From NCBI GenBank assembly GCA_000091205.1, contig AP006484.2: a stretch of 64,000 bases of DNA. The stretch is one strand, 5' to 3'. The notes under the pieces are model-generated. The model saw only the letters and a program-made list of their open reading frames with translations. It did not search any database and was not told the DNA's origin. The stretch is from Cyanidioschyzon merolae. Taxonomy: Eukaryota. Positions 4,740 to 60,462 of the stretch are shown here, in pieces. Position numbers and translations under genes: made by a program. Positions within the stretch are counted from its first letter, which is position 1. Each line of letters opens with the position of its first letter.

Positions 4740-5205
4740 GCATTCATTTTCAAAAATTAACAATCCAAGGGAAAGGTATTGGCATGGAAGTCGAGGTTCC
4801 TGAAAGCTTGGTGTTGCCAGATCGGTGAAAAATCGGAAAAAACTTTTCTCCCAACAATCGAGCAAAGAAGAGCCAGTGCTTGAAAAGAAGTTGAAAGGGA
4901 GGCGGTCGAGAAAAAAAGTTTTGCCCAAAGGGACGATGACGAGACTGTAGTGGCACAGAGGGCATGAGTTCTAGGAATCCCTCCACTGGTGCGTACAAGC
5001 AGTAGCTAGAAACGCGTGTAATTCGTGAGCTGCGACTTAACCGCCGCCGTTAACACCAGGAGATGTGCGATGCTGAAGACGAGACCCTCAGAGCTGACGC
5101 GGACGAACTTTGTGGAGCAGCCCTTCTTGGATCGAATTGTACAAGGAGTTGAGGCGGAGAGCATGCTGCCGGTCAAAATGACTGGGAGGAGTCTGCGCGT
5201 GGGTA
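4740..5205 (+). repeat. Diverged relic of the TnpB/Fanzor-like element family (3' portion only)
   Basis: About 470 bp align by eye to 47725-48195 and to the 3' end of repeat B. The translated frame gives ..VSCDLTAAVNTRRCAMLKTRPSELTRTNFVEQP.., compared with NRDFNAAINFRRCALLKTEPEELRRYNFVRQP in repeat B. The conserved nucleotide tail ..ggtcaaaatgactgggaggagtctgcgcgtgggta matches the B1 tail. No intact ORF. Confidence 0.45.
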
Positions 5206-7767: not shown

Positions 7768-7894
7768 GCTGCTTTCGGAGCTAGGCAATAGAGTCGAAAG
7801 GCAAACTATGGACGTCGCTGCATAGCGTCTCAGTCTGCCGGCGAACGCCAATGCTGCTGCACGCAGTCAAAATGGACGCCAGAACCGCATCGAA

Positions 7895-9296: not shown

Positions 9297-9930
9297 ATAT
9301 CGAGCTTGAAACCCTGTCCTGGACTCTCTCTCGAACAGAAACATCGTAGGGAGAGTATGGATGAAGGGCCTTTTACGCAATATCTGAATATGCGGAGCAT
9401 CTACCATCGTCAATCTGCATCTTAGGCCTTGGAGTATGCAAACACGATGACCAAGGCGAAGCAGAGCGAACGCGATCGATTTTTCGAAGCGGAACATGAA
9501 AATTTCCACTGTTTAGTGTAGAATCAAAATGGGTTTTCACAAGTTTCCAGCAGTGCAGAACAGTTGGTCTTCATTTTCAACGCAAACGAAGGCGCGGAGT
9601 ACTTGCGTTCCAGTCTATATATTTATTGCACCTACTAAATCGGCCACAACATGGAACAGTAATTTTAACAGTACGGAAAATCACCCTTCCCGCAGAGCTT
9701 ATTCGTCCCGACAAGAGGCCAGCACCTGCTAAACCGTATGGCGAATTCAATCCAAAAATTTTTCTGACTTCCAGCGTCAAGAACGCAGGGCCTACGTATC
9801 TTGAGGTTAAAATGTTCAAGTCGAATTTCACTCGAAATACACGGTTCTCGGGTAAGATAGGAATCAATGGTTCCAGAGTTCTCAAAATCGGGATCGAATA
9901 AACAAAAAGAGTGGGACTGCGATCTTCTTA

Positions 9931-11399: not shown

Positions 11400-12703
11400 C
11401 ACTCCGGAGGAGCTTTGATAGTTCGCTTTCGTCTGAAGACTTTCATCAGAGTACAGTGGGCTCACTGTTTGAAGCTCTCGCTGAAGATAGCACTTATCAG
11501 TCATTGATTGCAACCGTTCCCAAGATCGGATATCGACTGTTCGGAGATGATCTTGTTCCCGGTACTATTGGGCATGCTTAAAAATACTTCCGCACACTAG
11601 CGCACTTTACGGAGCAGATTTTCGTCCCGCTGCAGCTGAATCTCTATGGAAGTATCACAATTTTAGAGGAGCCGCAAGAAACCCAGCACCACTCATTACT
11701 ACGAGGGAGCTCTTTCCATTCGAAGCACGCGTTCGACCTGCGTTTGCCTCGCACGCGTAAGCGTGACGGCTGACGCGCTCCTACAGCAGCGACTCTCCAT
11801 ACTCAGGGCTGCTGGGCCTTTGAAGAGCATCAACGGGCGGCCAGAATAGAAGACACATCGCATGTAAGGCGTCCGACATGCGCTGTCCGCATGCTCTATG
11901 TCGTGAAAATACCAATATCGAACCAGGAAACAAGCACTCCGAACATCATGGGCATCGAGCAACGACTACAGCGAAGACCTTTCCACGCATGAGACTAACC
12001 TTTTCAATCCAGCCCGAAAATGGAATTTCATTCAGTAGAAAAACCGTGAAGTACACGCTTGTCTCGGTTATATATGCATGCAAGCATTCATGTGTGCGAG
12101 CACTCGCGCATCTACGAGCAGCCTCTTGGTGATAGAAGCGGCACACCATCCCGCTGTGGCAAGCCGGCAGTTGGATCCACGAGACCTCGAGCTGATGCGC
12201 TTGAAAGCGCACAGTGCAGCCGTTCTACCACCATGAAGCGATCGCGGCTGGAGCGCCGCAAGCATCCACGATGCGCCGGGTACATTCAAGGTAGCTGGAT
12301 CAAGCAAGCGTTTCCCTCAAACGGGAAGGCTAATTCGGTGCTGGTGTATTGTAGGTACTTCTGTGAGGGAGCAGAGGTCTCGTCCCTGGTACTGGCAGGA
12401 TGCGCGTTCATGCGAGAATATGGACACATGTATCCTTGCCACCCTAGTAGACTCGGACGGCCAGAGGCGCGTCGCGCACCGATTCCGGTCTGTGGATCCG
12501 GGAGATGCGCTCGCATGCTGTCGATTGGGTTCTGCAGCCACAGTCGTCCAGAATACGGATCGCTGACTTTTGCGGTGTATCTATTTTTAGGTTCTAAGGA
12601 TTCGGGTGTTTTTTTGCGAGTTGTGGTTCACTTACAGCATAGACACGCCGTAAACGCTTGTCGCGCGCGGCACCTGTCGAACGTCCGAACTTTTTACAAT
12701 CCT

Positions 12704-15016: not shown

Positions 15017-15847
15017 GATCCAAGATACGAGTGAAGTTTAGCCAAGGTTTTCAGTGCTCTGCGTCATGGTCGAGCTGCGTTAAACAGAAGAAACTTGTTT
15101 TGTCAAATTTAACTAGACACCTAGGTGGACCACGGCGTCTCGCGGGATTCGGATGAGTAGTTCTGTGGCTCGCCTCGACTGTATCAATCCGCTGGTCGAC
15201 GTAGCCTCCATGAACTTGACGAGGATTCTGGCAACGCAGGGATAAAGAGCGGTCTCGTTTCCTCGAAAGACGCTCGTTACGAAAGTAGCATTCATTGGGA
15301 GAAAGCCGCTAAATCAGAGTTGACGTTGAATGCTGCTCGCTCAGGTCTTTTGTGCTCCCTGCTGAGCATTAACTCGCTTTAGAGTTCCGACATTTTCGGT
15401 CAATTTCCGCTATTTCATCCGCTTATTTCTGGCAAACTTTTCCGCTCTGAGCTGCTTTCGATCTGGGTAGCCAGCGTTTATCCCGTGCGAGAATCGCTTC
15501 TCACAGGAAGCCACAGATTGCTGTTCTCGACCAACGGAATGTCCGTATGACAGTAAACCTGTGGGACGCAGAAACCAGCTCGTTCCAGGCTGTGCAAATC
15601 GCTACTTTGTATGGTTTAAGTTTGATGAATCCTCTCTGAATCCTCTATACATGCAAATGCGAAAACCCGGCTTTCAGGAAAGGAACCGTAGATCCTCCGC
15701 AGAAACCTACATATACCACAAGCTCCTGACTCGTATCAGCGCCAGCAATAGAGTTAAGATCGACCAAGCGTGCCTTCTAGAATCGGGCTCGCTGTAAAAG
15801 CTCTAAATGGCACTGGATGCGCTGCGGCATGCGATACTCGAAGAGCA

Positions 15848-17249
15848 CATGCACTGCATGAAATGTTTCCATCCATGGCATTATAGAGCGGAACGAGTTC
15901 CAGCGAGGTAACACGGCCACACACAATCAAGCATGAGCGTCTTCTCGCTGTCATCAACACAGGCTTTTGCCGGGTTCTTTGTGACGAGTTCCTTCGTCCC
16001 TCCCTTATATCCTTCTTTGAATACGTCGGTCTCCCCTTTCCCTCGGCATCTGTTGTCCGCAGACGGAGGAGGTTCATGGCAGCGTTACTGTCCAGGCTCC
16101 GCACGTTCCGACTGTTGGCCGCACATTTCATGCGCACGCAGGCGTTGCAATCTATTTATCGCTTACTGCACTCATTTTCTATGTTTACGGCCTCGGTGCG
16201 CCTCTCGCAGGGATGACACCTGCTTATGGTGAAATTCCCTCACATTTCCGCCACATATTCTATCTAGAGCGCCGCCACGTAGCGCGCGAACGCGTGCTTC
16301 ATCCGTCGGTATGTGCCCTTGACATGCACAGGAGGCTCTCTTCAGTGCCCCCCTCTGTTTGGTCGTCTGGTACGGTACCCCACGATCACGGGCTTGCTGT
16401 GAGCGATTCCAGGGGTGCGTTTTCTGTCCAGCGCACACGCGAGCACACGTTGTTCCATTCGATGAAGGATTCGTCGAATGCAATACTATCTCTGATGAAA
16501 CAAGAGCCGGAAGCAAGGTCGAGACTGAAGAACAATTCGAAACGTTTCGATGCATCTACGCTCCGTTCGTGCAACCAGGTGACGCACGCTTCACCCGGGG
16601 AGATCACAGCAATGACTAAAGGCCGAGTCCGGGACCCGTTTCCGCGCAAACGGAAACTGCGGGAGCCCCTGGGCATCATACCCAGTGAGATGTGTGGTGC
16701 CGTTGTCGAAAGCCGTTTCGTCGATAGCCACAAAGAGAGGAGGATTTTTCTCGCGAACGCGATCGATTATTTGACGTGAACAGCCCAGTGAAGTTGCAAC
16801 ACGAGCTTGTGAAATAGCAGTCGAAGGATGGCGTCTTGGCAAGCACTTTTCCTCGTCAATCCAGGGGCGCGACATGCTGCGCACGCGAGTTGCCCTGAAA
16901 CAGAAAGATCGAAGACTTGAAGAATGCGTGATCTAGGCATGCTACGTGTAAGCAAAAGAGAAGTGCCGCGGCACGTACGCGTCGAAATGTTTTACGATAT
17001 CGGCTATTTTATTAGCCCGCGTTCGAGCGCGTCGCGAACCATTGTGATCATGGTCATGCGAAGTATTCCCGGGGTAAAGACTCGGAGGCATCACATCGGA
17101 AAGACGTCCGCGGATTCTCGACTGCTTGCGAATCCTCACGCGGTTATCGCTGCTTATCGGATGTCGAGCATGTACATCCCAAAAGTTCGGAAAAAATGAA
17201 TGGCAAGAATAGAGTACGCATGTCAGTTTCCTTTCTTAATCCAACACGA
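15848..17249. repeat. Dispersed repeat family A, copy 2
   Basis: Collinear and about 99% identical to 7895-9296. It diverges from copy 1 immediately outside these coordinates. Confidence 0.85.
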
Positions 17250-17718
17250 GTGTAGCGTCTCGATGCCACGAAATTGTATTCTCTCCCGGACACGAAACTA
17301 GGATGCTCAATGTCGTGTTTTCCTGAAAGACCGTTTGAGGTTCCTCTGATCGACTTCATATTATCCTATCGATCCTGACAATCTTGTGCTATAGACGGAG
17401 CGGATTCTGGTTCACGTGTTGCTCCAAAAACAGAGGTTTATATTGTTTTTCTACGACTCCGAATCTTTCTGCGAAATCGGAGAAATGGTGCTTTCTGCAG
17501 CTGGTACTGGTTCAATCTCGCTCTCGCAGAGAAGCAGGGTGCCAAGTTTCGCTTCGGAGAGTGGCTTACGAAATCAATATCGTCTCATTCACGTCTCGAA
17601 CGTTCATGCGGAAAACATTATGATGTCCGTTGAATATTTTCAGCTGAGAAAGAAATCCTGATCTTTCGTTCTGTAAAACAGTGCTCAGCAGTTTCTGTCA
17701 GCATCTCATTCAGAGTGT

Positions 17719-18990: not shown

Positions 18991-21900
18991 AACGATACCG
19001 CCGTGTGGAAATCGTCTCCGCGAAGCGTCGCGAGCGAAAAGGAAACTGCATTGTGTCGCACTCTGCACCATCCTGGTATCTGCTTCAAGTTGCGCACGCT
19101 GCTCCTTTAAAGTTGGTTTATTTTCGGCAATCAACCCTCTATGCTCGTTGCAGAAGAATACTGCGATCGCGAGGAACTCCCACCCTCGAGGAATCATATC
19201 ACAATGACTGCGATGTTGCTCCATCCTCTCGTGCTTCCTCGATATTACTTGCGCAGTCGTTTAGAAAGCTACTGTACTGAGAAATTTTCAACAAGTTAGG
19301 CGACGGTTGAAAACAGCACTGAATCTAGTTGGGCTGCGTACACGCACGGAAACGGCAGGAATTGCTCAGCGTGCTGCTCGAAGCGGGAGAGCAGTTCGCC
19401 ACCGGTTTCGGACTAATGGAACACTGGACTGCGCTCTATTCTCCTGCTTTTCAAGCTTTCAGAACTTCTTTAAATGTGCAGCCTCGTGACTCGAGTGCAG
19501 GAATAAGGGCTTGCGAATTAAAATGTGGTTTTACAGTTTACGGAAGTCTTTCCACGGAGGCCTCTTCGACTCTTTGCCGATGGAACTCGATGTCCACGAA
19601 ATCAAGATGAAGCGCTACCTTCTAATAAGGGTTTGTAACATAAAGGATATCATTATCCAGTTCATATGCCCAAGCCTTCGCTCGTCCCCTTTCCTTACAC
19701 GTAGCATGGTCAATCCACGAAGTCTTCAAGTCTTGAATCATTCTGTGTTTAGGCAACTCTAGCGCGCAACATATTGCGCTGCTGTGTCGTCTAGGAAAGA
19801 GAATTCAACAGTGTCCCTTGACGACTTCTTCACAAGTTCAGAGCGAAGTCTCATTGAACTTATCACGACGAATAATCGATTCCGTTAGATAGAAAAATCG
19901 GTCCCTCTCTGCGGCGACCGGCGATACTGCATTCGACAGGAGAATGATACCTCTCAGGATGTGTGCGCCTAGAAGCGCCGGTCAATTCTGCTCGCAAGCG
20001 CAGGTAACTTGGACTCGGATCTCAGTCGTCGCAAGAATCGCTTCCAGTAATGCGTGCGTCTCCGCCTTCAGTGAAGCGAGCGTTGACAAATCGAAATTCC
20101 GCTTCTATTTCTCCAGCCAGGATTTTTCCTTCCGTTGCTTGTTTCATCATGGACAATATCGAGTTCTACAATTCATTCCTAGAATAGAACGGATTGCGCT
20201 TTCAAGTATAGCGACTAGAATATTCGCCGAGGGAGTCGCTCAGAATAAACTCGTGATAGCAGGGTACGGTACCGAACTTGGAAACTGAGAGAAGCGCCTG
20301 TGGAAGTCTTAAATACATGCCACGGAAATGCACCGAGCCATGAAGCAAGCGTTCACAAGTCGCATGTCGGCACTTGGGGAAGTACGTGTGGTGAACGTAC
20401 GGGACCAACCGAACGCAGCCAGGTCCCACCACTGCGAAGAGCTCACCGAGGATGTGTTTTAAGAAGTTGAAAACGGCAATTGGTACCTAAATAGAAAAAA
20501 CATCCTCCTGTACATGAAAGAGTCAACAACAGGTGGAAGCAGGGAGACAGGGAATTTAACGTTGCTACCAGCGTCATTTGACTGTCTGAATCGGAACTGG
20601 GGAAAGTAAAGACCAACATATTTAGAGCAGGAGACCATAGAAAGGAAAAGAAGCTGTCCCTGCGAATGCCGGCAAAAGCCTTTGTTAAAGACCGCGAGAC
20701 GAGAACCAAACTTTGATAGGAATTTCCGAGCGAGCCATGTGGAACACTTTCGATCTTAGTCTCACATGAATGTACTGCAGATGGTGGGCACGCCCTTTAT
20801 AATGAATAAATGTCTGATAATGCCTCTTTACAACTTATATTCAGGAGATTCTAGAAGAAGCAACCGTGCCGTGGATCTTTGATACTGTAAGTGGGAGGAG
20901 ATTTGGAACTCCTACCTCTTCATCCTCTTGACTAATCGCGCACAAAAGCACTCCGACACTTTAACTTGACTAGCTACAACAGACTAATATTTCGTAACCT
21001 CAGGTTACCCCTGGCTCATCTTCAAAGAAAATAAATTTTTCCAGGAGGTACTAAATATGGACAACGTCCAAGAAAAATTCAAAATACGTCATCGAAATCG
21101 CCCTGCTGCGAAAATTAGAAATTCGCTCAGATCTGAAATTTTTGAAAGGCAAATTTCGCTCCCGTGTGCCTTAATAGATGTCTCCCAACAGAATGATTTA
21201 ATGTATTCATAAGCTCAGCCCAAATCGTTCCGGCCTGCGTGAAAACTGATAATTAATTTTTCTTCGTATTCAACGATTAGACTCAACACTGGGCTCGTCG
21301 AACTTGACCATCGTAAAATTTTGCTGCTTCTGTTGATTATATAGGATTCGTTTTTACTGGACCGTCTGCCAAGATCTATACGCAACTAGTGAGTATGGAA
21401 CCTTTACCGCATACTGAGTGCCAGTGGAGTCTAAGTTAATCTTTAATCTTTTTTTCAGGCTGAGGGCCTGCAGCCTTGTTTCTGAGAAAAATACCTGTCA
21501 GAGACCCCGTTGAAACTACGGTGAGCGGTGGAACCATCAAGAGTTACTCTCGGCATCGTTGCGTTTCTCCATATAGAACGCTTTTGGAGAATCCGGCCAA
21601 TAATGAGGGAACTGCGTTCTGAGACTTGACGGAGATTGCTCGAAAAACAAAAAAAGTATTATTGTCATGCGTGGTTCGAACCGCGTCAGATATTCGTGCG
21701 CCTCTTAATGCCAAATGTGGTAGTCGGTGTCACTATCGCATGCTCGCATCCCATCCTGGCTATCTGGTAATGATTTGAGCCTTCGCAATTACTAGTTGAA
21801 TTGCATCTATCCAAGCAATTGGTATCTCAGAAATCCTTTCAGATCATCTCGTGGAATTACACACTTCGAAATAAAACTCAATAAATCCATTTGCGAGTAC

Positions 21901-23940: not shown

Positions 23941-25294
23941 AGTTTTTCATCTCAATTTTGTCGCACCCGCGCTGCGGTGCGTACAAAGAGTGATCGAAAT
24001 GACTATGCAAGATACCATAGATATCGAGGTCGGATTGTCCGTAAGTTACATTCTTTACTAAACCGTGCATGGATCGCTGCATTCCTCCTTCAGGTACGTA
24101 TACCATAATATTCAGATGGTTGAGAAGCACTGAAAGAAAGAAGTATATGCACTCCGCGTCGAAAAGCGATATTTCCAGCGACTACTTGGTGGCGATGCTA
24201 GAAAATAACCCGTGGATCGAGTTAGGGAAAGCAAAACCTGCGATAATGGCTGCCACAGGCGTCCTTCTTTCCCACAAGCTTGTTCGTGTGATCCTAGAAC
24301 ACTGGGATACAGTCTCAAAGAACGAGTCCTAGTTCATGCGCGGCCATCATCCACCGAAATCGGAACTATAGTGTTCCTGGCACGACGCGATCCGTAGAAA
24401 GCAGAAGATCGTCGGTTTGTTTTTTCAGTCGATGAGACTTGCTTCGGACGACACGGTCGGAGCGTATATGGGCGTTCGTGGAGCAGGGCACCCATTGTGT
24501 GTATCATCTAACTCGAAGAGAACGATCACATCATCATCTGTTCTAGATGCAGTGGATTCATTTGGCGGCCTCAGTTTCGCTCGTGGTGGAGGCTCATGCA
24601 ACAGCACCCTCTTCTTTGAATCATTGAAGACTTTTCCCTGATGTCAAGCGTAGTCCTGCTATCGGACAGCGTGACATTTTACCATTCCCTTGCGATCGAG
24701 CCTCTGCCGATTTTATCCGGATAGGTCTGCTTGCCATTCCTCCGTGCTCTCCGTGACTAAACCCCATCGAAGAAGCGCTTTCTATCGTGAAACGTAACCA
24801 TCGCTCCATTGGGTGAAGCGCTGAAGCGTTCAGCACACGGTGACACACCAGGGCACATGTCGTCTCGCTTCCGCAAGTCCTTCTTGATCCGTGAAGATCC
24901 TCACTTAAGGGCATGAAGAAGTGTGTTCGTTTTGAAGAAATACAATACCCGAGAGATGAGCTGGGGTGCACACTTCAGAACGTCGAGATGAAGAAAAGCC
25001 AGCGGAGCGCTTCGCTGGTAGAAAAGCACGGAGTGTTGAGAGAGCAGCAAATGGCGCAGACGGCACGTGTTCGAGGAATCCCGCCACAGTTGTGCTCAAC
25101 GAGAGGCAAAAAAAACGCATGAAATTCTTGAACCGAGACTTCAATGCCGCTATCAATTTCAGACGGTGTGCGTTGCTGAAGACGGAACCCGAGGAGCTGA
25201 GGAGGTATAACTTTGTGCGGCAGCCTCTCCCGGCGGAAGTCTATGAGGTGAAGATGAAAACGATAGCAGTGGGCCGGTTGAAAGAGACTTGGAG
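23941..25294 (+). mobile_element. Repeat family B, copy 2 (TnpB/Fanzor-like relic); its 3' end is about 20 bp shorter or diverged relative to copy 1
   Basis: About 99% identical to 9931-11284. The hairpin CGCACC-n8-GGTGCG sits at 23962-23981. After ..aaagagact the sequence differs from copy 1 and from the other family members. Confidence 0.7.
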
Positions 25295-25304
25295 GCGCCT
25301 CTGA
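24960..25304 (+). pseudogene. TnpB/Fanzor-like RuvC-III fragment (copy 2)
   Basis: Same translation as in copy 1 (..RMKFLNRDFNAAINFRRCALLKTEPEELRRYNFVRQPLPAEVYEVKMKTIAVGRLKET), then it terminates (..WRRL*). Confidence 0.55.
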
Positions 25305-25585
25305 CTAAGTGTTATTTTAATCTTCCTGGTGGTGGAATGTTTTTAGTTTTACTGAGCCTATGGTGCAGATTCCACGATGATTTCGGATACGATTTTTCGT
25401 CGTTGCACTTGCGAGGGTGCACCGGTCAGAAGTAGAGCCGCGAACTTTCCGCTGTTTAAGACGCCGAATAAGTTTCCGTGGGTAGAAGGGCATCGTTTGC
25501 TTCTTTGTGTCGACCGGCCAAAAGAGTGGAGCCTGTGAGAGGTACGTCCACCACGACGAGGGATCTGTAGGGCAGAAGCCTGCCA

Positions 25586-27982: not shown

Positions 27983-28155
27983 GTGCTTCGACCTCTATCG
28001 AGGTATTGTAATCCTTAGATATTGTCAGACTGACGGCTGAGGCGGAACTGCTTACAGCAGCAAATCTCTGCCCTTCGGCACGCTTACACCAGTGCAAGCT
28101 CTTGTATCTGTAACGGCATCTGCTGTGTCTCTTCTTCGTGTTTTCCCGCAGGAAC

Positions 28156-30372
28156 TCGACAAAAAGATTTCACCCCGTACATTCGAGAAAGGTCACGTAA
28201 GCACTACATGATGTCAGTGCTTGCATTTGAAAAACGAACTTACTTTCACATGCAAGTCATTCTACGAACGGCGGGTACAGGAACCACCCTTCTCGTAGTC
28301 CACATACTACGTGGTGTGCATCCAAAATAGAACTTATCAAACTCGCTATCGACGACTGTTTCCTCGTCAATCCTTTCCGTGCGATACGTTCTTCACGAAA
28401 CGCTACCAAGGAAGCAACAGTGCGGCAACTTTACGCAACGCTGATACGAACGGTGGAGAACAGACACGGATGGAAAAAGTAAGATGTATGCCTCTATGGG
28501 AGAGCGGTGCGCGTTGCTCACCGAACTATCAGAGTCGCACCCAAATACAAAAGCTTATTGCCGCAGCAACGAATGTTCGTCTCACTCGACGAGACTTCAG
28601 ACGTAGTAGATCTGCATGAGGGCACTCGAAGAGGGCCCCATTGTCGCCCGTGCAGAATAGACGAGCGAGCATTCCGACAACGTCAGCCCTGGCGATGATT
28701 CCACTGCTTGGTCGCCTACGAATCGAGAAAAGCACAGGGTAGTTCGGCAACGCTTCTCGTCACCTAAGCAGTTCGTGGCTCCCCGTTACCGCTATCTTCC
28801 ATCCTGCTCTTTTACAGCGTTGCTTTCCGTCATCCAAAGGCGGTCCAGGAGCACGTGCCCGAGACTGGCATTGAGCGACTATTTGTGCCTGCCGATTCTC
28901 CGAGATTCGATCCTATGAAAGGCATCTTCTCTGCTGAGAAACGCCAATATACGCTCCCGGATCGATAGTCGAGTCGTTCGCATCCGTGGAACCGTCCGTC
29001 GACGAGTCCTTCCGTGCTGGTACTATCCCGGAACTGGGCTGCTGACCCTCTGCTCGAGCCAGGAAGTGAGCGGAAGGGCTCGCTTCGGTCGCACCGCCGG
29101 CCCAGTACCAGTGAGTCCCGAGGGATAACATTCGGATGTAGCGTATAGGAGAAAAACCCACGGAGAGACGAGATCAACCTGCAACCATGGTCAAGGCACT
29201 CCTACGAAAACACATCACCTGGTAGAATCTCTCCCAAAGTGAGACGCTGGACGTTGTTTAGCGAAAAATGCCTCCTACTCTGGGAAGATTCGTCTTCCTT
29301 CTCTCGCCTTGACACACATCCTCAAGCGACTGTTGGTAGGATTGTAGGAGACAGGACGGGCAGCTGTCCAGAGTCTGCCGTTACGTATTCAGTCCAACCC
29401 TGGTGCGACAACTGATGCTCTCGATGGAAGACGGAATACATACCCGGCTTTTCTATGGCTGTATCTCATCGAGAGTCGGGCATGTTCGACGCTACGAGGC
29501 GCACCAGCAAGCGGAATGTCGGCGTCACGACCTGTCTTGACACACTGGGCTTCGCATCGAGCAGGGAATGATGCTCCAGACGCCTCTCATAGAGTATACA
29601 TGATCGTCCGGATGGGTCATACGGGCGCACTTTGGCTAAAGCACATGCATCCGTGTTGAGGTCGCCAACGTTTCCGGTTATTCGGAGGGGAAAAACGTGC
29701 ACTCGCAACTCTCTCGTTGCATTCGATGAGGAATTGGCAGACGTGTTGCGTCTGTTCTTTGGTTGTAGCCTACGGCGCTGGATATGCTGTTGGGCGCGAG
29801 GGTCGCACTCGTGCCGCATGTGGAGCACACAAAGAGTGCAGCAACCCATGCTGCACGATGCCCGTCTTTGCGTACAGGACGGCATACATATATTGCGAGC
29901 ACAGGTGCGCACTGAAACCTGCACGGGAGAAGAGCGTGAATCGACGCTGGATGCACGGGATGTCGCACAAAAAGCTGACCGAAGGTCAGGTTACGAGAAC
30001 ATTGACCGTGGGCGGCTTGGCTTGGTGTGATTCGACCAGGAACAACGCGCACAAGCACTTGCTGCAGCATGACTTGAAGGTTTCGATCAGCAGTCGGGAC
30101 TATCCCACGCTTCCAAAGCGACCAGCGGCTTTATCTTCGGAGGAATTTGGAGGGAGTCCTTTCGCAGCTAGTGTGGGCATTGTGCTGGAACGCTGAAGGC
30201 TTGCGATGAAGAAAAGCAGTATCGGCCAGGAGAGAGGGTCGGGTTTCCATCCGAAGCAACGCACAAGGATGATGTCGTCAGCGACCCAGATATGCTAGAG
30301 CGCCGAATGCGTACACCGAGAATGATTTACCATGGCAATCGGTGAAAGATAAATATGGTCCATTATTCGAAA
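28156..30372. repeat. Dispersed repeat family C, copy 1 (about 2.2 kb, unclassified, no long ORF)
   Basis: About 99% identical to 58246-60462 at a constant offset of 30090. It starts TCGACAAAAAGATTTCACC and ends ..TGGTCCATTATTCGAAA. The 11-bp inverted repeat at 28232-28264 has one mismatch in this copy. No TSD, TIR or LTR is evident. Confidence 0.85.
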
Positions 30373-36597: not shown

Positions 36598-38385
36598 GCC
36601 GCTGTGCAGTCCAACGTCTGACGCTGCGAATCGCTCATCGAGCTCACATTCGGCAAGCAGCAGTGCGGAAACTTGATCGCTGCAATTCGAACCTCGCATG
36701 TGTTTTTCCGACAATCTGTCGGGCTTCTCGCCAGCCAGGAAGGGTATTCTGAGGGCTCTTGGGGACAGAAACTATATCGGAGAAAAGGTGTATACGTTGG
36801 TTTGAAGAACATTTCCCTGGGGAGTCTCCTCGAGTACGTCTCTCAGTGGAAAGCGCGTGAGGTACCGATGGGGAGCGCTTGAAACCTCCACGCCCATATC
36901 AGAATAGATTTGAAAGGGCTACCTACCCAACTTGCGCGCGTACGCTAGAGGTGGGGTCTCTTTTCAATGAGATTAACTCCAGCCGATGTGGGCTTTATCT
37001 GTGATTGCTTCATCTAGATCTCCTTGAACTCCTACTTTAGGGACAGTGGTCCCTACGCTCGTTCCATCTCGGTCGGCAGCGTTAAAGTTCCGCTTTTGCT
37101 ACTTCCGGCTGTTGTCGACGCATTTTACCACAGTCGGAGTCAGCCATTTACGCTTCGTTCGTCAGTTAAATCTTCTTCGTATGCCATGCTGGGGCTGTCT
37201 TCTATGCGATGACAACTGGTTATGGACAGGTGTTCCCATTTGTCTACCACAACTCCCCATTCGAGCGGCGTCCTGTTGCATGTTAAGGGATGCCTCATGG
37301 CTCGGAACAGGCGCCTGGAGTGAACAAAAACTCATCTAGATGCCCGCCACCGTTTCTGCGCTCGAAGCCGTACCCCACGACGGCGTGCGTCTTCTCGGGG
37401 ATCCTTTCCGTTAAGTATGCTGTCCACTGCACGCGCAAGCACGCGCTTATCCATTCGACAGGGGATATGTGCAACGATATGGTATCCAGGATGAAACGAG
37501 CACTGGAAGGAAACTTCATGGTAGAGATAAAGTCGAGATATTCCGATCCGTCTGAGCTCGCCCCGCGCAAAGCGGTGAAGCAGTCTCCACTTGGTGCGAT
37601 CGCTGCGATAACTCAAGTCCTGATCCAAGACTCTTTCCATGTAAACAATAGGGGCCGACTCCTGTAGGAGCATACCTCCCGCTATCTACCTTGTTAATAC
37701 TGTCAGATGCAGTCTCTTCGATGGCCCCGTAGAGGAGCGGATTTGTCTTTCAAACGAAATGTATTGTTCGACGTGAAAAATTCTTTGAATCTTTGGCAAG
37801 CGCTTTTTGAAGAAGTCGCCAGGGCAGAGCGTCCAGTTTTCTCCTCGTCAATTCAACAGTGCGAGATGCAGCACGCAGGTGGTGTTTCGAAATATAAAAA
37901 GAAAAAAATGAAGAATGCGTGATTTGGACATGCAGCACACATAGATAGGAGAAGCGTGGAAGATCTTACGCATAAGCTCGAAAAATGCCACCTATATACA
38001 GACACCGTGTTCGCGGGCATCGCGAATCATCTTTTTTCCAGTGTCGTAACAAATCTCAAGCGCACAGAGTTTGAGCCAGTCGTGAAAGAGAACCGAGAAT
38101 CGTAAAACTTCATATGGAGTCTTAAGCCATTTTTGCTGTATTTTGAATGTCGAGACAGCACATCTAAAAGTTTGGAAAGAATACTGAAATATAGGTACAG
38201 AGCGAGCAGCTCAGTGCTCCGTTTTTGCAGACCCGGGCGCGCGTCTGGCCGGCATCAGATACTTGCTTGCAGACTATGCAAAATAACTGTTATTCGCTTT
38301 TTGCTCGCAAAAGCCTGCCTCGCGGTCACAGGCACACCCGTCCGACATTTTGTCTCTTTCACGTATATGCAATGTTCATACATGC

Positions 38386-47724: not shown

Positions 47725-48195
47725 GAAGTGCATTCATTAGAGGAAATAAAAAATGCAAGGGGAAGGTATGGACGCAGAAGTCAGGGATACTGGAGGACCG
47801 TCAATGCCGGATACAAAAAATGTAGGGATTCCTCTTCCGACCGAGTATCGACTGAAGTAGAGCAACTAAAAAAGAAGCAGAAGAAGGGACACAGACGAGA
47901 AAATGTGCTACTTCACGGGATGATGACCAGACTTTGATGGCACAGAGGGCACACGTTCGAGGAATCCCTGCCATGGAGAGTTGAACCAGAGGCAACCAAC
48001 GCATGGATTTCGTGAACCGAGACTTCAGCGCCGCCATCAATATCAGACGATTTGTGACGTTGAAGAAGAGACTCGAGGAGCTGACGTGGGCAAATTTTGT
48101 CCGGTAATCTCTCATGCTCGAAGTGTACAAGGAGAAGCTGAAGCCGACTTCAGGAGGCCGGTTGAAAAAGGCTGGAGTAGGCTGGGAGTGGATAT
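47725..48195 (+). repeat. Diverged relic of the TnpB/Fanzor-like element family (3' portion), homologous to 4740-5205 and to the repeat B tail
   Basis: The translated frame gives ..TRGNQRMDFVNRDFSAAINIRRFVTLKKRLEELTWANFVR*, the RuvC-III motif, then ..LEVYKEKLKPTSGGRLKKAGVGWEW (compare B: AEVYEVKMKTIAVGRLKETGS). The nucleotide tail ..ggccggttgaaaaaggctggagtaggctgggagtgga is conserved with B1. Confidence 0.5.
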
Positions 48196-50077
48196 TCTTT
48201 TAACCCTCGGTTTCGAAACTTTCTCGCTCCATTGCCCGAATACGATAAAACAGTTAGATGTTCGCTCTGCTCCTGCATGTAAATAGTTTATCCAGAATTT
48301 TCTGACGTGTACGGCCTCGACAATCGATGTGTAGCGATATGGTCTTGCGGATTGAATCGTGGTCGAAGGACCCGCGGTGGTATTTTCGGAATGACACGTT
48401 TGCAGCTTGGCCGGGGATATTCGATATGTCACCGGAAGCAAGATGATTCGTGACGTATTCGAATAAAGGTTCGTAAAATAACCGACATGGTCATCCAGTG
48501 GATATGTAGAAACCTCTACAATTCTGTTTTATGTACGCCCAGCATGGTAAAACCATGCATTGTCCTAGTTTTCGTGCTTGCAATCTCAAGCAAACTCGTG
48601 GGTGCAGCCATTCGAGCCGCAGATTGGATGGCGAGATGAGTCGACCTCTTCCCTCAACTACTAGTTTTCATGCTCGTGCCCATGGTCAATTGAACTCCTG
48701 CGCCAAATAATCGATTTCATTCGAAAAACAAATCCGCCAACGGTGACATCTACAGAATGGTTACCCGCTGCAGCATGAGACCCCCATGGGGTATGCTCCT
48801 CGAGGCTGCCGTCTCGTCTGATTCGCTCGAAAACGGTCATAGGCTCGGACTTTAGTTATCATAAAAACCGCTGCCATCGGAGAGAGCGTCACAGAATTGC
48901 AGGAAGCAAGCGTGAAGGGATCGAAAGTTCTCGACTTGTTCGCCAGCCTCGAGTTCCTTTTCTGTGTAGGTTTCGTCTTCGATAACACCGCGAACCACGA
49001 ATTCTCTATCAAATGGAACGACATCCGCTTCCATATACAGCTGATATACTACTCGGGGAGAAAATCGCCCAGAAAAAGTATGTGATTGCAGGGTACGGCA
49101 GCAAGCGTTGAAACAGATGAGGGCATCGAGGCGAGCCTTCTGTAACAGTCAAGTTCATGGATGGAGCAACGAATCAAGGCTCCATGCTCCGCAGGGCAGC
49201 GCTCGTAGGTGGAGACGATTTGGCGCCCATATAGGGATACTTGACTACAGCCAAGTGTGACCATTGCGTAGAAAACACCTAGCCTGTGCGCAAAGAAGAT
49301 GAAGATGGCAAGCGAGGCGTAGATCGAAGCATCCGCCTGCCCATGAACTGTGTTGACAACCACCGAAAGAGGAAAAATTGTATTCCAAGATCATCATCAA
49401 AATCTTTCAACTGTTAACAACGGAGTTGGAGAAAAAACAGACCGGCTTCATTAAATCCAGAGTTCCGAGAGAGAAGCTGAAGCAGTCGCAGAAAAAGAAG
49501 GCGAAGGCTATTCGGGATGGCAATTGGAACAGACCCAAATTTTCAGCGTGTACGCCTTACATAGCTAAATGGACTCATTCCAATGTACTCAAATATCGAT
49601 ACAGAACTTGCCGCATTCAGCGGAGCTGCGCCAGGTCGGGACCGCCTCCGTCAAAAAACGCTTCGCTACGTGCGAACCTCGAACCGCTGTCGAGTGGCGA
49701 TAAAAGGAGATGGTCTCTTTCTTTGGACAGTTTCTACCAGCTGTCCGCTAGATAGCGCTACGTTGCTTTTGATTCGCCGAGATTTCATTCGCTCACGGCG
49801 TAGTGCAGGTCTCAGATCCATGCTATGTTTAAATTGACTCTGGAAAGTTCTTGCGTTTGAACGCCATTGCGACAGGGCGAGCGCTCTGCTCGATGATGCT
49901 TCCGATAGGGGATGGATCCAACCAGCTACGAATGTATTGTAGTCCTCGGCCGGCGCAATAGTATCCTTTTATCATTTCGAATTGGAAAGAGCGCAGTGCA
50001 AAACTGCGTGCTATTCTCGTCGCAGCCTACTGGCCGAAAATCTGGAATGAGAATGATTGTTGGCGTTTGGACCCATA

Positions 50078-50709
50078 TTAGAATAAAATAGCACGATTGG
50101 AAACGCTAAAGCTTCGGTTTCTTCCCTCTCTCATTAACGACAGCATTTGCGGGCTTTTTCTGCGAATGGTTCCTTGTTCTGTACCATATCCAAGGAAGAA
50201 ATCATACGGCCTTTCGTTTAGGTCCAGCTCCGTAATGAACAGTCGAGAGATATTGATGACGGCATTAAAGTTCCGATTTCTCCGCTTCTGGATCTTCTTC
50301 ACGCATTTAACGCACAGGCGGGAACTTCGATCATCGCCTCGCTTCAAAATTTCATCGTCTCAGCGTACACGCTCGGTGCGAACGTCGCAGCGGAGGCGCC
50401 TTACGATGGTCAGGTTTTCCCATACGTACAAGAGATCTCACGCGTTGAGGCAGGCCCTGTAGTAGGCGGAGGGTTTACTTCCTTGCCCGGTACATGCCAG
50501 TGCTGGTTACAGACGGCAACCATCTGTGTTCTACCCCGTTTCCATACACAGTGCTGCACCTGACAATCAGGGGCTTCATCTGTGCTCTCTCGTCGACGAG
50601 TGCTATGTCCGCTGCACACAGGCAAAAACGCACGCTGTCCCATTCGACAGAGGGTATGTGGAACGCAATACTGCCCCATCACGCAGAAAATAACGAAAGC
50701 AAAGACCAC
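50078..50709 (-). pseudogene. Second, distinct TnpB/Fanzor-like relic (zinc-ribbon + RuvC-III region), with the catalytic Asp replaced
   Basis: Minus-strand translation: ..RSSRLCVKCVKKIQKRRNRNFNAVINISRLFITEL.. (50078-50347). This is a CxxC followed about 10 aa later by N-R-N-F-N-A-V-I-N-I, the arrangement of the OrfB zinc-ribbon C-terminus. The adjacent upstream minus-strand ORF (50410-50709) ends ..GKEVNPPPTTGPASTREISC, which could be a degraded V-x-V-N-P-x-x-T-S..C RuvC-II/zinc-finger segment in another frame. Confidence 0.45.
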
Positions 50710-52202
50710 GTTAAAGATCAGGTTTTCAAATTTCTTACCGTGTACGCTTAAGTTTCCAAAAGCGATAATGCACGCTCCACTGGAAGCGATCGCTGGGGTG
50801 ACGGAAGTCCACTTTCTTGGCGCTGTTCCATGCCAGCACGACAGAAATAATGGGAGCGTCTAAGAGCATGTCCCGTGAGTGGTAGCATGCCTTTGCTGAA
50901 GCGCGATTCATTAATGGCTTCCAAGCAAGCGTAATGTGTCTTCAAACGGAACTAATTATTTAACATGACGAGTTCACTGAACTTCCGGCATGAGATTGTC
51001 ATTAGCCAGCACGGGACGACGTGTCATTGGTTCGTCCTCTATCCAATGGCGCTCGTCGCCGCGCTAGCGAGAAGCGTTGAAAGAGAAAGATCGAGTCTGT
51101 TATGGAGGTGTGATTTGAGCATGCGACTCGTAGGGAAAGCAGACGAAATGAGGCTTGCATGTATAAATTAGATCACGATATCGGTTACTTTACGACAGTT
51201 GTTCGAGCGCGTGCCGAGTCACCTTAATGATGGTCTCGGAACGAGTTCCAAAGGCGAATATTCGAGGCAACCACTCCAAAACAACGACCGAGGATCGTAA
51301 AACGTCGTCTGGATTCGTAGCCTCTTATTGCTGCACTTGGAATGTCGACGCTGCATATCTAAAAAGTTTCGGATTCGTTCTATAGTCAGGGACAGAGGGA
51401 GCAGGTCAATTTTCCATTGTGAACGGACCCGGCTTTCGATGCCGTGCAGGCTAGTTTACCGATTAAGAGCGCATCATACAGTGCAGAGCGGCGTGCTGCG
51501 CAAGAGCTCACGCCAAATCCATTTGCATGGTGAAAGCAAACTTTATCCACATCGAAAACGAATGCATGGCTTGGAAATATGGTCCGGAGCCTGTGCAGCA
51601 TTGCTTTAGTTGTCGACGCATGCGATATGCCGCTTCTACGCCGCTATTCAACGCAGAGATTCCGGGGAGGCATCGTCGCGAAACATAATGTCGCAGTCAA
51701 TTCGTGACGGATAAACGCAACGTACTAGTCAGCGAGACGATTGCGTAGCTAAGCGATGGCCATGACGGCAAGCAAAACTTGGGGCCGGCTGGGCACTCGA
51801 AAGAGGATTAGAATCCTGCAAGGCGCGGTGACGGATACAATCCTCACAGGCATCCATTGGGCCTCGCTTCGCACACGAGTTCTACTCCCGGTCCGAGGAA
51901 TCGACCACTGTGAAGAAAGGAAATTTCATGGTTTTTCGTTCCCAGTGGACAATGCTTGCATTCCATTTCGTCGCATTTATCCGATTTTAATAAATACTGC
52001 TTCTCGGCCAGTTTCATTTAGCGCCTTCCTGGACTAGTATCAACCGTCTTCAACAGCGAGAATTTTTTTTGCTGCCTAGTCCTGGCAAAAAATATACTGG
52101 ATAGCCGTAAGGCTGCTCTCTCTGCGCAGGACGCAAACATCTGCCAAAGACGTGGCTGCTCACCTCGGCACCCTCGAGCGTCGCGCACCCGCAGCACCGC
52201 GC

Positions 52203-57088: not shown

Positions 57089-58245
57089 ATCGCTGTCTAG
57101 TCTCGTAGTAGCTGGTCGGCGGTAACACGCCTAACTATGAAACGATGTCGGCTGATATACGGCCAGGAGAAGCCGAACAACGTTTGCGGCACTTGGGCGC
57201 CTGCCGGGAGCGGTGAACCAGCTGGCCGCTTCTGGAGAAGCATCGAACGTTTAAACAGAATGAATCACTTTGCGCATTCGATAAAAAGTACTCCCGATAT
57301 CGCCAGTATTTCACTGTTCGGCGATTTTGCTGTTGGTCGCTTCGAGCCGGGCTCAGTGAGCGAATTTCAGAGGAATATTGCTCTAAGGCTGGCAAGTGCG
57401 TGTATCCGCGAAAGACAAGAGCTACGTTCCGCTAGATACCGATTCCATTCTTCCATTCAGCGATATCGGAAGTAGACGCATCGATCCTGAACGATACGGT
57501 AGACAGGCACGGCTCTTCCGCCTTGGATCGACTCCCGCGAGCTGATTTAAAGTTGCAATCAGCATCTGGTAGCCCTCGTGGAGTCGAGATGCGGTTTTTG
57601 GTACACTACTGAAGCTTGTTACCTCTTTCCGGCGTATTAAGAGCGTTCAAGCGCTGCGTGAGAGGCCAAAGCTTCCCTCTAATGAGCTGATGCGTACCTT
57701 GGACACATCATCGAAGACGTACTTGGCAGAAAGCGCGGCAATATGGATGCTAAATCGCTGTACGTGTATTCGAATCCATAAAAGCGCATCATAAAGGAAT
57801 AACGTATGTTCCTGATGCGTTAAAGCACAGGCAATACATCCTGCGCGAGAAACTCTCGTGCCATCCTTTACGGGGTCAAGATAATATTTCCGCTCATTCC
57901 GCTGGCATAGCGGGGAACTGGTACGCAAAGCTTCCATTGGCAGACAGGTGCTCTTGCTGCGAATTGTACAGCGAATATGTGGAACTCGATGCCCCTGATA
58001 TTCCCGAAGAGAATAAGCCAAATGGAATGCCAGTTTTGTAGTCAGCCGGGTGCAGCTTATACCGGCCATTGCGGAACCGGAAGCGTGGCAACGTGGCCAA
58101 CGCATATGCTGAAACGTTCCTGGAATATTGGATCCATCAAAAGTGGCATCTGCGATACCGCGAAAAGGTATGCTCACTGGAATGGGTTTTGAAATACCTA
58201 GAACGGCACGCATCGTTTGCCTTCTCTGATTCCCGTCGCCGGTAT

Positions 58246-60462
58246 TCGACAAAAAGATTTCACCCCGTACATTCGAGAAAGGTCACGTAAGCACTACATG
58301 ATGTCAGTGCTTGCATGTGAAACACGAACTTACTTTCACATGCAAGTCATTCTACGAACGGCGGGTACAGGAACCACCCTTCTCGTAGTCCACATACTAC
58401 GTGGTGTGCATCCAAAATAGAACTTATCAAACTCGCTATCGACGACTGTTTCCTCGTCAATCCTTTCCGTGCGATACGTTCTTCACGAAACGCTACCAAA
58501 GAAGCAACAGTGCGGCAACTTTACGCAACGCTGATACGAACGGTGGAGAACAGACACGGATGGAAAAAGTAAGATGTATGCCTCTATGGGAGAGCGGTGC
58601 GCGTTGCTCACCGAACTATCAGAGTCGCACCCAAATACGAAAGCTTATTGCCGCAGCAACGAATGTTCGTCTCACTCGACGAGACTTCAGACGTAGTAGA
58701 TCTGCATGAGGGCACTCGAAGAGGGCCCCATTGTCGCCCGTGCAGAATAGACGAGCGAGCATTCCGGCAACGTCAGCCCTGGCGATGATTCCACTGCTTG
58801 GTCGCCTACGAATCGAGAAAAGCACAGGGTCGTTCGGCAACGCTTCTCGTCACCTAAGCAGTTCGTGGCTCCCCGTTACCGCCATCTTCCATCCTGCTCT
58901 TATACAGCGTTGCTTTTCGTCATCCAAAGGCGGTCCAGGAGCACGTACCCGAGACTGGCATTGAGCGACTATTTGTGCCTGCCGATTCTCCGAGATTCGA
59001 TCCTATGAAAGGCATCTTCTCTGCTGAGAAACGCCAATATACGCTCCCGGATCGATAGTCGAGTCGTTCGCATCTGTGGAACCGTCCGTCGACGAGTCCT
59101 TCCGTGCTGGTACTATCCCTGAACTGGGCTACTGACCCTCTGCTCGTGCCAGGAAGTGAGCGGAAGGGCTCGCTTCGGTCGCGCCGCCCGCCCAGTACCA
59201 GTGAGTCCCGAGGGAGAACATTCGGATGTAGCGTATAGGAGAAAAACCCACGGAGAGACGAGATCAACCTGCAACCATGGTCAAGGCACTCCTACGAAAA
59301 CACATCACCTGGTAGAATCTCGCCCAAAGTGAGACGCTGGACGTTGTTTAGCGAAAAATGCCTCCTACTCTGGGAAGATTCGTCTTCCTTCTCTCGCCTT
59401 AACATACATCCTCAAGCGACTGTTGGTAGGATTGTAGGAGACAGGACGGGCAGCTGTCCAGAGTCTGCCGGTACGTATTCAGTCCAACCCTGGTGCGACA
59501 ACTGATGCTCTCGATGGAAGACGGAATACATACCCGGCTTTTCTATGGCTGTATCTCATCGAGAGTCGGGCATGTTCGACGCTACGAGGCGCACCAGCAA
59601 GCGGAATGTCGGCGTCACGACCTGTCTTGACACACTGGGCTTCGCATCGAGCAGGGAATGATGCTCCAGACGCCTCTCATAGAGTATACATGATCGTCCG
59701 GATGGGTCATACGGGCGCACTTTGGCTAAAGCACATGCATCCGTGTTGAGGTCGCCAACGTTTCCGGTTATTCGGAGGGGAAAAACGTGCACTCGCAACT
59801 CTCTCGTTGCATTCGATGAGAAATTGGCAGACGTGTTGCGTCTGTTCTTTGGTTGTAGCCTACGGCGCTGGATATGCTGTTGGGCGCGAGGGTCGCACTC
59901 GTGCCGCATGTGGAGCACACAAAGAGTGCAGCAACCCATGCTGCACGATGCCCGTCTTTGCGTACAGGACGGCATACATATATTGCGAGCACAGGTGCGC
60001 ACTGAAACCTGCACGGGAGAAGAGCGTGAATCGACGCTGGATGCACGGGATGTCGCACAAAAAGCTGACCGAAGGTCAGGTTACGAGAACATTGACCGTG
60101 GGCGGCTTGGCTTGGTGTGATTCGACCAGGAACAACGCGCACAAGCACTTGCTGCAGCATGACTTGAAGGTTTCGATCAGCAGTCGGGACTATCCCACGC
60201 TTCCAAAGCGACCAGCGGCTTTATCTTCGGAGGAATTTGGAGGGAGTCCTTTCGCAGCTAGTGTGGGCATTGTGCTGGAACGCTGAAGGCTTGCGATGAA
60301 GAAAAGCAGTATCGGCCAGGAGAGAGGGTCGGGTTTCCATCCGAAGCAACGCACAAGGATGATGTCGTCAGCGACCCAGATATGCTAGAGCGCCGAATGC
60401 GTACACCGAGAATGATTTACCATGGCAATCGGTGAAAGACAAATATGGTCCATTATTCGAAA
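58246..60462. repeat. Dispersed repeat family C, copy 2
   Basis: About 99% identical to 28156-30372. Here the subterminal hairpin is perfect: TGCATGTGAAA-n11-TTTCACATGCA at 58322-58354. Confidence 0.85.

Follow-up and report, generated by a model that had tools for sequence, protein, structure and literature searches.

A TnpB/Fanzor-like relic in Cyanidioschyzon merolae is the tail of a decayed, 1.4-kb transposase-Fanzor1 element

Introduction

A stretch of 64,000 nucleotides (nt) from chromosome 2 of Cyanidioschyzon merolae 10D, a red alga (contig AP006484.2; hereafter called the window) contains, on the minus strand between positions 50078 and 50709, a short translated segment in which a CxxC pair is followed by an NAxxNI block. 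The initial annotation, made from the letters alone, read this segment as a second TnpB/Fanzor-like relic, unrelated to a 'family B' at ~48015, and pointed out that Asn occupies the position of the catalytic Asp in the third RuvC motif (RuvC-III). This raises the question of whether the locus is a decayed nuclease gene whose Asn is shared by an inactivated, possibly domesticated family, or part of a different kind of element. Here we report that the locus is the 3' 40% of one copy (copy F) of a repeated 1.4-kb element, i.e. the Fanzor-derived tail of a decayed chimeric unit and not a decayed whole Fanzor gene. The family is probably an ancient non-autonomous derivative, generated by internal deletion, of a composite element that combined a transposase with a Fanzor1 gene, and the locus is one of its neutrally decayed copies.

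The C. merolae genome has been described as containing 0.7% transposons, with eight class II elements (PMC1955436). A description of the 1.4-kb family was found neither in that report nor in PMC3627910, which deals with Fanzor1 in this alga.

Results and Discussion

The motif belongs to a repeated element

The segment RLCVKCVKKIQKRRNRNFNAVINISRLF was located on the minus strand, reading from 50320 to 50237, with its CxxC pair, NAxxNI block and Asn as annotated (Table 1). In a six-frame scan of the window, the pattern [DN]x[DN]x(1,2)A[AVSG]xNI occurred at two sites only, this one and 48015-48044 on the plus strand. Residues 464-506 of P0083, an intact Fanzor1-like protein, were aligned with the 89-amino-acid (aa) open reading frame (ORF) of copy F at 50078-50347 at 42% identity and E 5e-9; this places the Asn of copy F opposite the RuvC-III Asp of P0083. 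A frame-corrected translation of copy F matched the same protein over 102 aa (31% identity, E 3e-11). No Pfam match at E<=10 was obtained with the ORFs of the locus or with stop-masked translations of copy F and its sister copies.

A blastn comparison revealed an inverted match of 68.6% identity between 50223-50378 and 49276-49430. Copies were delimited by nhmmer, first with one copy as seed (E 1e-79 to 1e-103) and then with a hidden Markov model (HMM) of the family. Six full copies (A to F) and one partial copy (H) were detected in the window; their summed length is 8.7 kb, which is 13.7% of the window. The consensus element is ~1,386 bp long and bounded by terminal inverted repeats (TIRs). 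The interval 50078-50709 of the initial annotation includes the motif but does not delimit the feature, as the Fanzor-derived part runs from 50106 to 50654 and the whole unit from 50067 to 51438.

Metagenome contigs were scanned with the consensus protein, which yielded 35 loci holding 62 HMM hits. When a locus assembled in several samples was counted once, 18 non-redundant full-length copies were available from the window and from hot-spring metagenome loci. All 18 are 1.32-1.41 kb long and have common ends, and no longer form was found among them. Identity to the 18-copy consensus is 69-75.5% per copy (71.6% for copy F), and every copy contains several stop codons. Divergence from the consensus amounts to 0.24-0.29 at codon positions 1, 2 and 3 alike, in both halves of the element. 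From this equal, codon-flat divergence it follows that the unit multiplied as a whole and that its later decay was neutral. Reading frames are lost in every single copy and were restored only by the majority consensus, built from five and later from 18 copies.

Copies A and B share stop codons and are 99.4% identical to each other, each being ~26% diverged from the consensus. They were considered as a recent transposition that might show the exact ends of the element; this was rejected, as the limits of identity (7894-9296 and 15847-17249) mismatch the element ends, starting 6 nt inside the 5' TIR and extending ~20 nt beyond the 3' end. Rather than transposition, the pair seems to record a copy that was already dead and then underwent ectopic gene conversion or was duplicated locally. 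Antisense ORFs of 188 aa, each starting with ATG, run through both copies (8260-8826 and 16213-16779, plus strand). They are unannotated and absent from the protein collection, and are probably a consequence of the family's stop-poor antisense frame.

The 5' part is derived from a Tc1/IS630-type transposase

Nucleotides 83-789 of the consensus encode a protein of the form M..HTH..AIDETAFD..GYAPRGSR..FIMDNIAFHKSS, where HTH denotes a helix-turn-helix region. This first ORF matched PF13358 (DDE_3) with E 6.5e-11 and 42.7 bits (cut-off 28.6) over profile positions 3-117 of 146. Matches of the consensus to HTH_33, HTH_Tnp_Tc3_2 and HTH_32 were weak (E 4e-4 to 8e-3), all below the gathering scores. 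Alignment with the intact 286-aa transposase P0068 gave 40% identity (E 7e-54) and included the HTH region. The transposase-derived share is the 5' 57% of the element and retains transposase codons 1 to ~236. Two catalytic motifs, D1 (AIDET) and D2 (FIMDN), are present in the consensus, and secure homology to P0068 stops at AFHKSS. The D-D-E/D triad is incomplete, in that the segment ..YSPxxNPIE.. with the third catalytic residue of P0068 is missing from the consensus. An apparent continuation of the DDE homology to a 'YSP' motif over the Fanzor frame was dismissed as compositional, with 5 of 25 residues identical; in the Fanzor frame, the 9-mer QRALARAAD is matched exactly.

The 3' part is a Fanzor1 fragment, and its Asn is a product of decay

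The -1 frame of the consensus, from nt 790 onwards, translates as YRMEQRALARAADRVLAEGIAQKKPVIVGYGTGRGNGGGHRGEPSVPVKGMYRAMKQAF..VVDIWEHLTTAKCHRCEE..RLCMKCVDNSRKQRNRDFNAAINILRLL..GKERPAYL..KL-stop. It matched PF07282 with E 1e-7 and 32.4-32.5 bits (gathering cut-off 26.3). Missing profile support, named beforehand as grounds for rejecting a TnpB/Fanzor-type origin of the zinc ribbon-to-RuvC-III region, was indeed encountered at the single locus; it is overturned by the family consensus together with the homologues, and the P0083 alignment and the PF07282 match bear that origin out. The signature of Bao & Jurka, [TS][TS]xx-C4-x(5,50)-RD, is present in the consensus as TTAKCHRC..(22)..CMKC..(9)..RD and degraded in copy F to TIVRRLRC...CVKC...RN. 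The counterpart of the TnpB 'TSxxC' segment is VVDIWEHLTTAKCHRCE in the consensus and ..YVWENLTIVRRLRCDV in copy F (50387-50437), in the frame of CVKC. A string GKEVNPPPTT..SC at 50458-50487, which the initial annotation had likened to the VNPxxTSQxC segment of TnpB, is present in the sequence, but it results from reading ancestral ..GMYRAMKQAF.. in the wrong frame.

Compared with the intact 551-aa Fanzor1-like protein P0072, the Fanzor part showed 47% identity (E 8e-43), with homology starting at ..YRMEQRALA (P0072 residue ~313). The RuvC-I Asp, the RuvC-II Glu and the WED and REC lobes were not found in the family, the 157 upstream codons of the same frame being without similarity to P0072. 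Because the other upstream frame encodes DDE_3 and Fanzor homology begins only at YRMEQRALA, the family contains a Fanzor fragment and not a Fanzor gene. It has been without the N-terminal 60% of a Fanzor protein from its origin, and it is for this reason, not because of the Asn, that it is incompetent as a nuclease.

A census of the RuvC-III codon in the 18 copies gave GAC nine times, GAA or GAG three times, GGC twice, AAC twice (copies F and D), and GCT and TAT once each; all intact relatives have NRD at this place. Since GAC is found in nine copies and AAC in two, the Asn is a product of decay: the ancestral codon was GAC (Asp), and a single G>A transition in a dead copy gave the Asn of copy F. 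Accordingly, the suggestion that homologues might reveal a family-wide, perhaps domesticated, replacement of Asp by Asn did not hold. The initial annotation had also offered nuclease inactivation or pseudogene decay as the meaning of the Asn, of which decay is retained, while loss of nuclease activity is not due to this residue, RuvC-I and RuvC-II never having been present. At present the locus is expected to have neither nuclease nor guide-RNA function. A sequence search of the PDB with either half of the consensus returned nothing relevant.

The two parts meet at a sharp, out-of-frame junction

The junction is sharp, at AFHKSS/YRMEQRALA, and the two homologies abut within about 2 nt: that of the transposase (P0068) ends with AFH(K/R)SS, and that of Fanzor (P0072, P0081) starts with [YF]R[ML]xQRALARAAD. 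The Fanzor frame is offset by -1 relative to the transposase frame in most copies, and the offset is therefore ancestral. Such a one-base frame difference is as expected of a deletion and not of a designed fusion.

The element has terminal inverted repeats and a conserved right end

At the 5' end of the consensus, CTACACCCGTGTCAGATTAAAATGGAACA matches the reverse complement of the 3' end, CTACACCCATGTCAGAATAGAATGGAACA, by inspection at ~26 of 29 positions, and the two form TIRs of ~30 bp; the element ends read CTACACCCGTGTCAG...CTGACATGGGTGTAG. Conservation begins and falls off abruptly at the TIR limits. A search for TIRs in individual copies by local alignment found nothing, the repeats being visible in the 18-copy consensus only. 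A duplicated TA target site is a hallmark of Tc1/mariner/IS630 insertion. The consensus termini are C-TA-CAC...GTG-TA-G, and in the individual copies the 5' T is present in 7 and the 5' A in 12 of 18, the 3' T in 9 and the 3' A in 14.

The right end is common to the consensus and six intact relatives. It comprises the 60-90 nt after the stop codon, starts with (A/G)TACGCC and ends with ACAT(A/G)GGTGTA(G) in the form ..ACATGGGTGTAG, after which similarity stops. Its alignment score was 54, compared with a maximum of 30 in 500 shuffles. TACGCC(N) after the stop codon is followed, at a distance of 30-75 nt, by (N)GGTGTA at the terminus, and RNAalifold predicted a 7-bp stem UACGCCN/NGGUGUA from them. 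In the seven sequences, 95.9% of the cells of the stem pair, including one invariant G-U pair, and the value was 14-63% when the stem partner was slid by 1-3 columns. Compensatory change was seen in two stem pairs, one CG being replaced by UA in L049 and another being split between UA and CG; the covariation score was matched by 11 of 500 shuffles. The stem hints at a functional terminus in the live lineage, possibly the place where a guide RNA ends; seven sequences are no proof of this. Sliding-window folding of the consensus sense strand, over all windows but the last, gave no significant z-score. On the antisense strand, the window at nt 987-1186 had a folding z of -4.3. No RNA family was detected by Rfam at gathering thresholds on either strand of the whole window.

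Table 1. Coordinates of the 1.4-kb family, of the parts of copy F, of CMe-1A-like fragments and of right-end stems. Positions refer to the window unless a contig or the consensus is named.
Feature	Position	Strand	Basis or remark
Copy A	7903-9306	-	nhmmer
Copy B	15856-17258	-	nhmmer; 99.4% identical to copy A
Copy C	19394-20774	+	nhmmer
Copy D	36876-38244	-	nhmmer; AAC at the RuvC-III codon too
Copy E	48224-49604 (nhmmer limits 48222-49611)	+	nhmmer; tail to tail with copy F, ~460 bp apart
Copy F, whole unit containing the motif	50067-51438 (nhmmer limits 50061-51438)	-	family HMM positions 6-1394, E~0
Copy H, partial	5253-5674	-	family HMM positions 14-454
Copy F: 5' TIR, decayed	51409-51438	-	mapped from consensus
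Copy F: Tc1/IS630-type transposase-derived part (HTH and first two catalytic Asp motifs of DDE_3)	50655-51358	-	consensus homology; start codon decayed to ATA
Copy F: D1, AIDETAFD	50895-50918	-	
Copy F: D2, FIMDNIAFH	50658-50685	-	
Copy F: transposase/Fanzor junction	50635-50654	-	consensus ..AFHKSS / (L)YRMEQRALARAAD..
Copy F: Fanzor1-derived part, last ~180 codons	50106-50654	-	homology to PF07282, P0072, P0083
Copy F: VIVGYG site	50553-50570	-	decayed to LIVRCS
Copy F: TS-x-x-CxxC segment	50387-50410	-	TIVRRLRC, first Cys gone
Copy F: second CxxC, CVKC	50303-50314	-	within the annotated motif
Copy F: RuvC-III, NRNFNAVINI	50249-50278	-	within the annotated motif
Copy F: RuvC-III catalytic Asp position	50270-50272	-	AAC (Asn); codon census
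Copy F: stop codon TAG	50106-50108	-	
Copy F: right end (3' untranslated stretch and 3' TIR)	50067-50105	-	decayed, ~20-nt deletion
CMe-1A Fanzor1 3' end ('family B' of the initial annotation)	47889-48185	+	..MDFVNRDFSAAINIRRF..; just before copy E
Other CMe-1A-like fragments	4941-5207, 10936-11282, 24946-25310, 29585-30175, 59675-60265	+	tblastn
Right-end stem sites	L039:7225-7284; L040:~11740-11809; L046:~1790-1836; L047:~1650-1721; L048:~1280-1310; L049:~1370-1408; family consensus nt 1330-1386		

Intact relatives occur in metagenomes, some of them in composite elements

Searches with an improved consensus retrieved full-length or near-full-length Fanzor1-like relatives, namely P0072 (551 aa), P0083 (536 aa), P0081, P0085 and P0078. 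Over 430 positions, among them IETDG and GxDPG, P0072 is colinear with the published CMe-1 protein of C. merolae (E 1e-13). The intact proteins come from hot-spring and other metagenomes, some of them from giant-virus-like contigs, and are 46-65% identical to the family over the C-terminal region that it retains. They share with it the series RMVxFRLxQRALARAAD...VIIGYGTGRGNGGGHKGEP...TTQKCHRC...NRDFNAAINIL...RPxYL as well as the right-end motif TACGCC...GGTGTA. Unlike the family, they are full-length (376-551 aa), with IETDG and GxDPGRVNLY (RuvC-I) regions. Another candidate, P0001, came from a word-based protein search with the 5-copy consensus and was rejected as a spurious ORF on another relic. 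A scan of IMG/VR with P0072 revealed no relatives. AlphaFold2 models had a predicted confidence (pLDDT) of 38 for P0072 alone and of 47 for P0083 aligned with other sequences (10 in the alignment), and their quality did not suffice for a fold search.

The contigs carrying P0072 (L039) and P0071 (L040-L043) are gene-dense, with many ORFs lacking Pfam matches and a G+C content of 0.53-0.56. They encode a divergent single-ORF Rpb2, along with an RNA ligase and a Peptidase_S74 protein; the Rpb2 scored only 578 bits against Pol II RPB2, a value not far from its 465 bits against archaeal subunits. Judged by this gene content, they appear to be giant-virus-like. P0071 itself is a 610-aa ORF that resembles Fanzor in its last ~210 residues only; a 1-nt change at the usual stop codon leads to read-through of the right end.

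Composites in which a transposase gene is followed by a Fanzor gene exist among the relatives of the transposase part. Downstream of the DDE_3 protein P0073 (L044), a 628-aa CMe-1-like Fanzor is encoded on the same strand after a gap of 63 nt; for the DDE_3 protein P0074 the gap is 93 nt, and the downstream gene, again on the same strand, encodes a 636-aa Fanzor protein with PF07282. The conserved right end of the family moves together with the Fanzor gene. For the Fanzor of L044, no TACGCC...GGTGTA end was found, and the TIRs of the family were sought in L044, in L045 and upstream of the intact Fanzor genes, and none were found. The composite on L044, which comes from an unrelated sample, is apparently intact and ~4.3 kb long (1037-3882, with flanks at 787-893 and 5005-5107). 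It is bracketed by inverted repeats and contains the DDE_3 transposase (298 aa), the CMe-1-like Fanzor1 (628 aa) and a C2H2-type zinc-finger ORF of 281 aa.

Relation to CMe-1A and other known systems

A single Fanzor1 family, CMe-1A, has been described in C. merolae by Bao & Jurka (2013), with a length of 3,169 bp, ~150 copies at ~80% identity to the consensus, and no TIRs (PMC3627910). It corresponds to the 'novel interspersed repetitive element' of 3.2 kb for which 253 copies were reported by Nozaki et al. (2007; PMC1955436). Using the CMe-1 protein (PMC3627910, supplementary file 3), residues 620-730 were matched by tblastn to 47889-48185 on the plus strand (46% identity, E 5e-18), which identifies 'family B' as CMe-1A. 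The relic at 50 kb thus belongs, as the initial annotation held, to a family other than 'family B', and two Fanzor lineages, CMe-1A and the source of the 1.4-kb family, have colonised the genome. The two are not unrelated, however. Both are of the Fanzor1 type, their ancestors have an identical NRDFNAAINI, and the family consensus is colinear with CMe-1 residues 544-686 at 25% identity (E 5e-7), the match taking in the last ~145 residues. At the nucleotide level, the HMM of the family touches CMe-1A at the RuvC-III motif only (E 0.68). The CxxC pairs of the zinc ribbon have been lost in CMe-1, whereas the ancestor of the 1.4-kb family kept all four Cys. The 1.4-kb family further differs from CMe-1A in having TIRs and a transposase-derived 5' half, in its length of 1.39 kb as opposed to 3.2 kb, and in its greater age (~73% versus ~80% identity to the consensus).

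Composites of mariner and Fanzor1, and Fanzor-only derivatives with the same TIRs, have been published as PUl-1, PGv-1 and PUl-4 (PMC3627910). These have TIRs and, on one strand, a DDE transposase gene and after it Fanzor1 near the right end, and the one-gene derivatives keep the TIRs; the two-gene layout is also seen beside the nearest intact DDE_3 relatives (L044 and the P0074 contig). Unlike these elements, the 1.4-kb family consists of a fused out-of-frame remnant only. Its transposase is of the DDE_3 (IS630/Tc1-like) type. With bacterial TnpB (OrfB of IS200/IS605) and Cas12f it has in common the C-terminal TNB zinc ribbon and the RuvC-III signature, but it contains the last lobe only and has no TnpA-type partner. 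Matches of the consensus to the NCBIfam models guided_TnpB and Cas12f2 were weak and far below the cut-offs.

Origin of the family

The founder probably arose from a composite cut-and-paste transposon that consisted of a left TIR, a Tc1/IS630-type DDE transposase gene, a Fanzor1 gene and the conserved right end with its TIR. An internal deletion would have taken the 3' quarter of the transposase gene, with the third catalytic residue, together with the 5' ~60% of the Fanzor gene, with RuvC-I and RuvC-II, and left two remnants joined out of frame. As this remnant kept both ends, it could be mobilised in trans, presumably by the DDE transposase of a full-length element, and a single burst of amplification would have been followed by ~27% drift from the founder. 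We infer both the deletion itself and the mobilisation in trans. Non-autonomous DNA transposons such as Ds, which is derived from Ac, and the precursors of miniature inverted-repeat transposable elements (MITEs) likewise keep their ends, have lost their interior, depend on a transposase acting in trans and are amplified in bursts. On this scenario the 1.4-kb family resembles them in all these respects, and differs in that the deletion spans two genes and left a chimera-like remnant, and in that a conserved Fanzor right-end stem was kept.

Several observations weigh against this scenario. The chief gap is that a full-length parent with the TIRs of the family was not recovered, every metagenome match being of the 1.4-kb form. 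The closest intact Fanzor genes (L039, L046-L049) have neither a nearby transposase nor a detectable left TIR in the DNA available, the transposases of the composite relatives are only 30-32% identical and their ends unlike the family TIRs, and TA target-site duplications are not demonstrable in the 18 copies at this divergence. Moreover, the Fanzor frame of the consensus is open over 336 codons (nt 319-1326; about 50106-51120 in copy F) and reaches 157 codons upstream of the junction, which a random deletion does not predict.

This open frame, together with the exact -1 offset, would fit a founder that encoded a real chimeric protein. Such a protein would start at the HTH region and pass through a -1 shift and an overprinted linker into the zinc-ribbon/RuvC-III lobe of Fanzor, and would have been selected in a master copy. 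When the codon order of the 157 codons was shuffled, ~9 stops were expected and none of 50,000 shuffles was stop-free; the other alternative frame of the consensus carries stops, and 13-18 stops were counted in the equivalent frame of transposase genes from intact relatives. For 250 codons, stops are likewise missing from the antisense frame that is in phase with the Fanzor frame. On the other hand, the 157 codons contain no ATG, no slippery site conserved among the copies, and no homology to Fanzor or to anything outside relic ORFs, and RuvC-I, RuvC-II and the third DDE residue would all be missing from the product. The stretch without stops is moderately robust only: it reached at least 300 codons in 47% of bootstraps and measured 238 codons with the 13 metagenome copies only, and the alignment is indel-prone near nt ~400. 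A selected chimeric protein is hence considered unlikely, and that it served as a regulator or end-binding factor instead of being an accident of deletion is similarly doubtful. The same positive evidence, the stop-free 157 codons and the exact offset, is the sole basis for viewing the 1.4-kb element as a self-contained 'end-recognition' module, in which a frameshifted hybrid and the right-end stem exploit DDE transposase and Fanzor in trans; this, too, is a long shot.

The remaining explanations fared worse on the evidence already given. It is very unlikely that the locus descends from a full-length TnpB/Fanzor gene of a second lineage that was inactivated, and possibly domesticated, with a family-wide Asn. 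The CxxC...NRNFNAVINI block is real and copy D also has AAC, but the codon census refutes a family-wide Asn, and upstream of nt ~790 the family is transposase-derived and without RuvC-I and RuvC-II. This reading is likewise contradicted by multiple stops per copy, by codon-position-flat divergence and by the fact that the relic ORFs are not annotated proteins. Two independent insertions, by which a Fanzor fragment landed beside or inside an unrelated Tc1/IS630 relic and never formed one mobile unit with it, are extremely improbable. Although nested or adjacent insertions do occur in the window, where CMe-1A fragments adjoin copies E and H, a junction identical to the base and the same outer ends in 18 independent copies refute this view, and both halves are equally diverged. 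The probability of a chance resemblance, or of a fragment of an unrelated host protein, is practically nil: the failure of the single locus to match Pfam is outweighed by its similarity to intact Fanzor1-like proteins and by a consensus that exceeds the Pfam thresholds.

With a deletion derivative of a transposase-Fanzor1 composite as the probable origin, the locus itself matters little, being a dead copy of an old transposon. The family matters more widely. It alone occupies 13.7% of the window, compared with the 0.7% of transposons published for the genome, and the content of old repeat families may thus be underestimated. Through it, a second Fanzor1 lineage is documented for a red alga; the closest intact relatives of this lineage, with the same right end, are found in giant-virus-like contigs. 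Such a context agrees with the published view of large viruses as carriers of Fanzor elements from host to host. The conserved right-end stem is a candidate for the 3' terminus of the guide RNA of this Fanzor clade.

Other features of the window

Introns are absent from the genes in the window, which are encoded on both strands with kilobase-sized non-coding stretches between them. Of six long ORFs examined, five are exact annotated C. merolae 10D proteins (range BAM78886-BAM78895).

Six CMe-1A-like fragments were detected by tblastn, all of them 5'-truncated 3' ends on the plus strand (Table 1). Two directly adjoin copies of the 1.4-kb family, 4941-5207 at copy H and 47889-48185 at copy E. 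Two near-identical pairs of longer segments were also noted, 9934-11284 and 23944-25294 (1351 bp, 99.9% identity), which contain a match to CMe-1 residues 608-729, and 28147-30372 and 58237-60462 (2226 bp, 98.8% identity), which contain a match to residues 508-706. Both pairs may be young CMe-1-derived elements or recent duplications.

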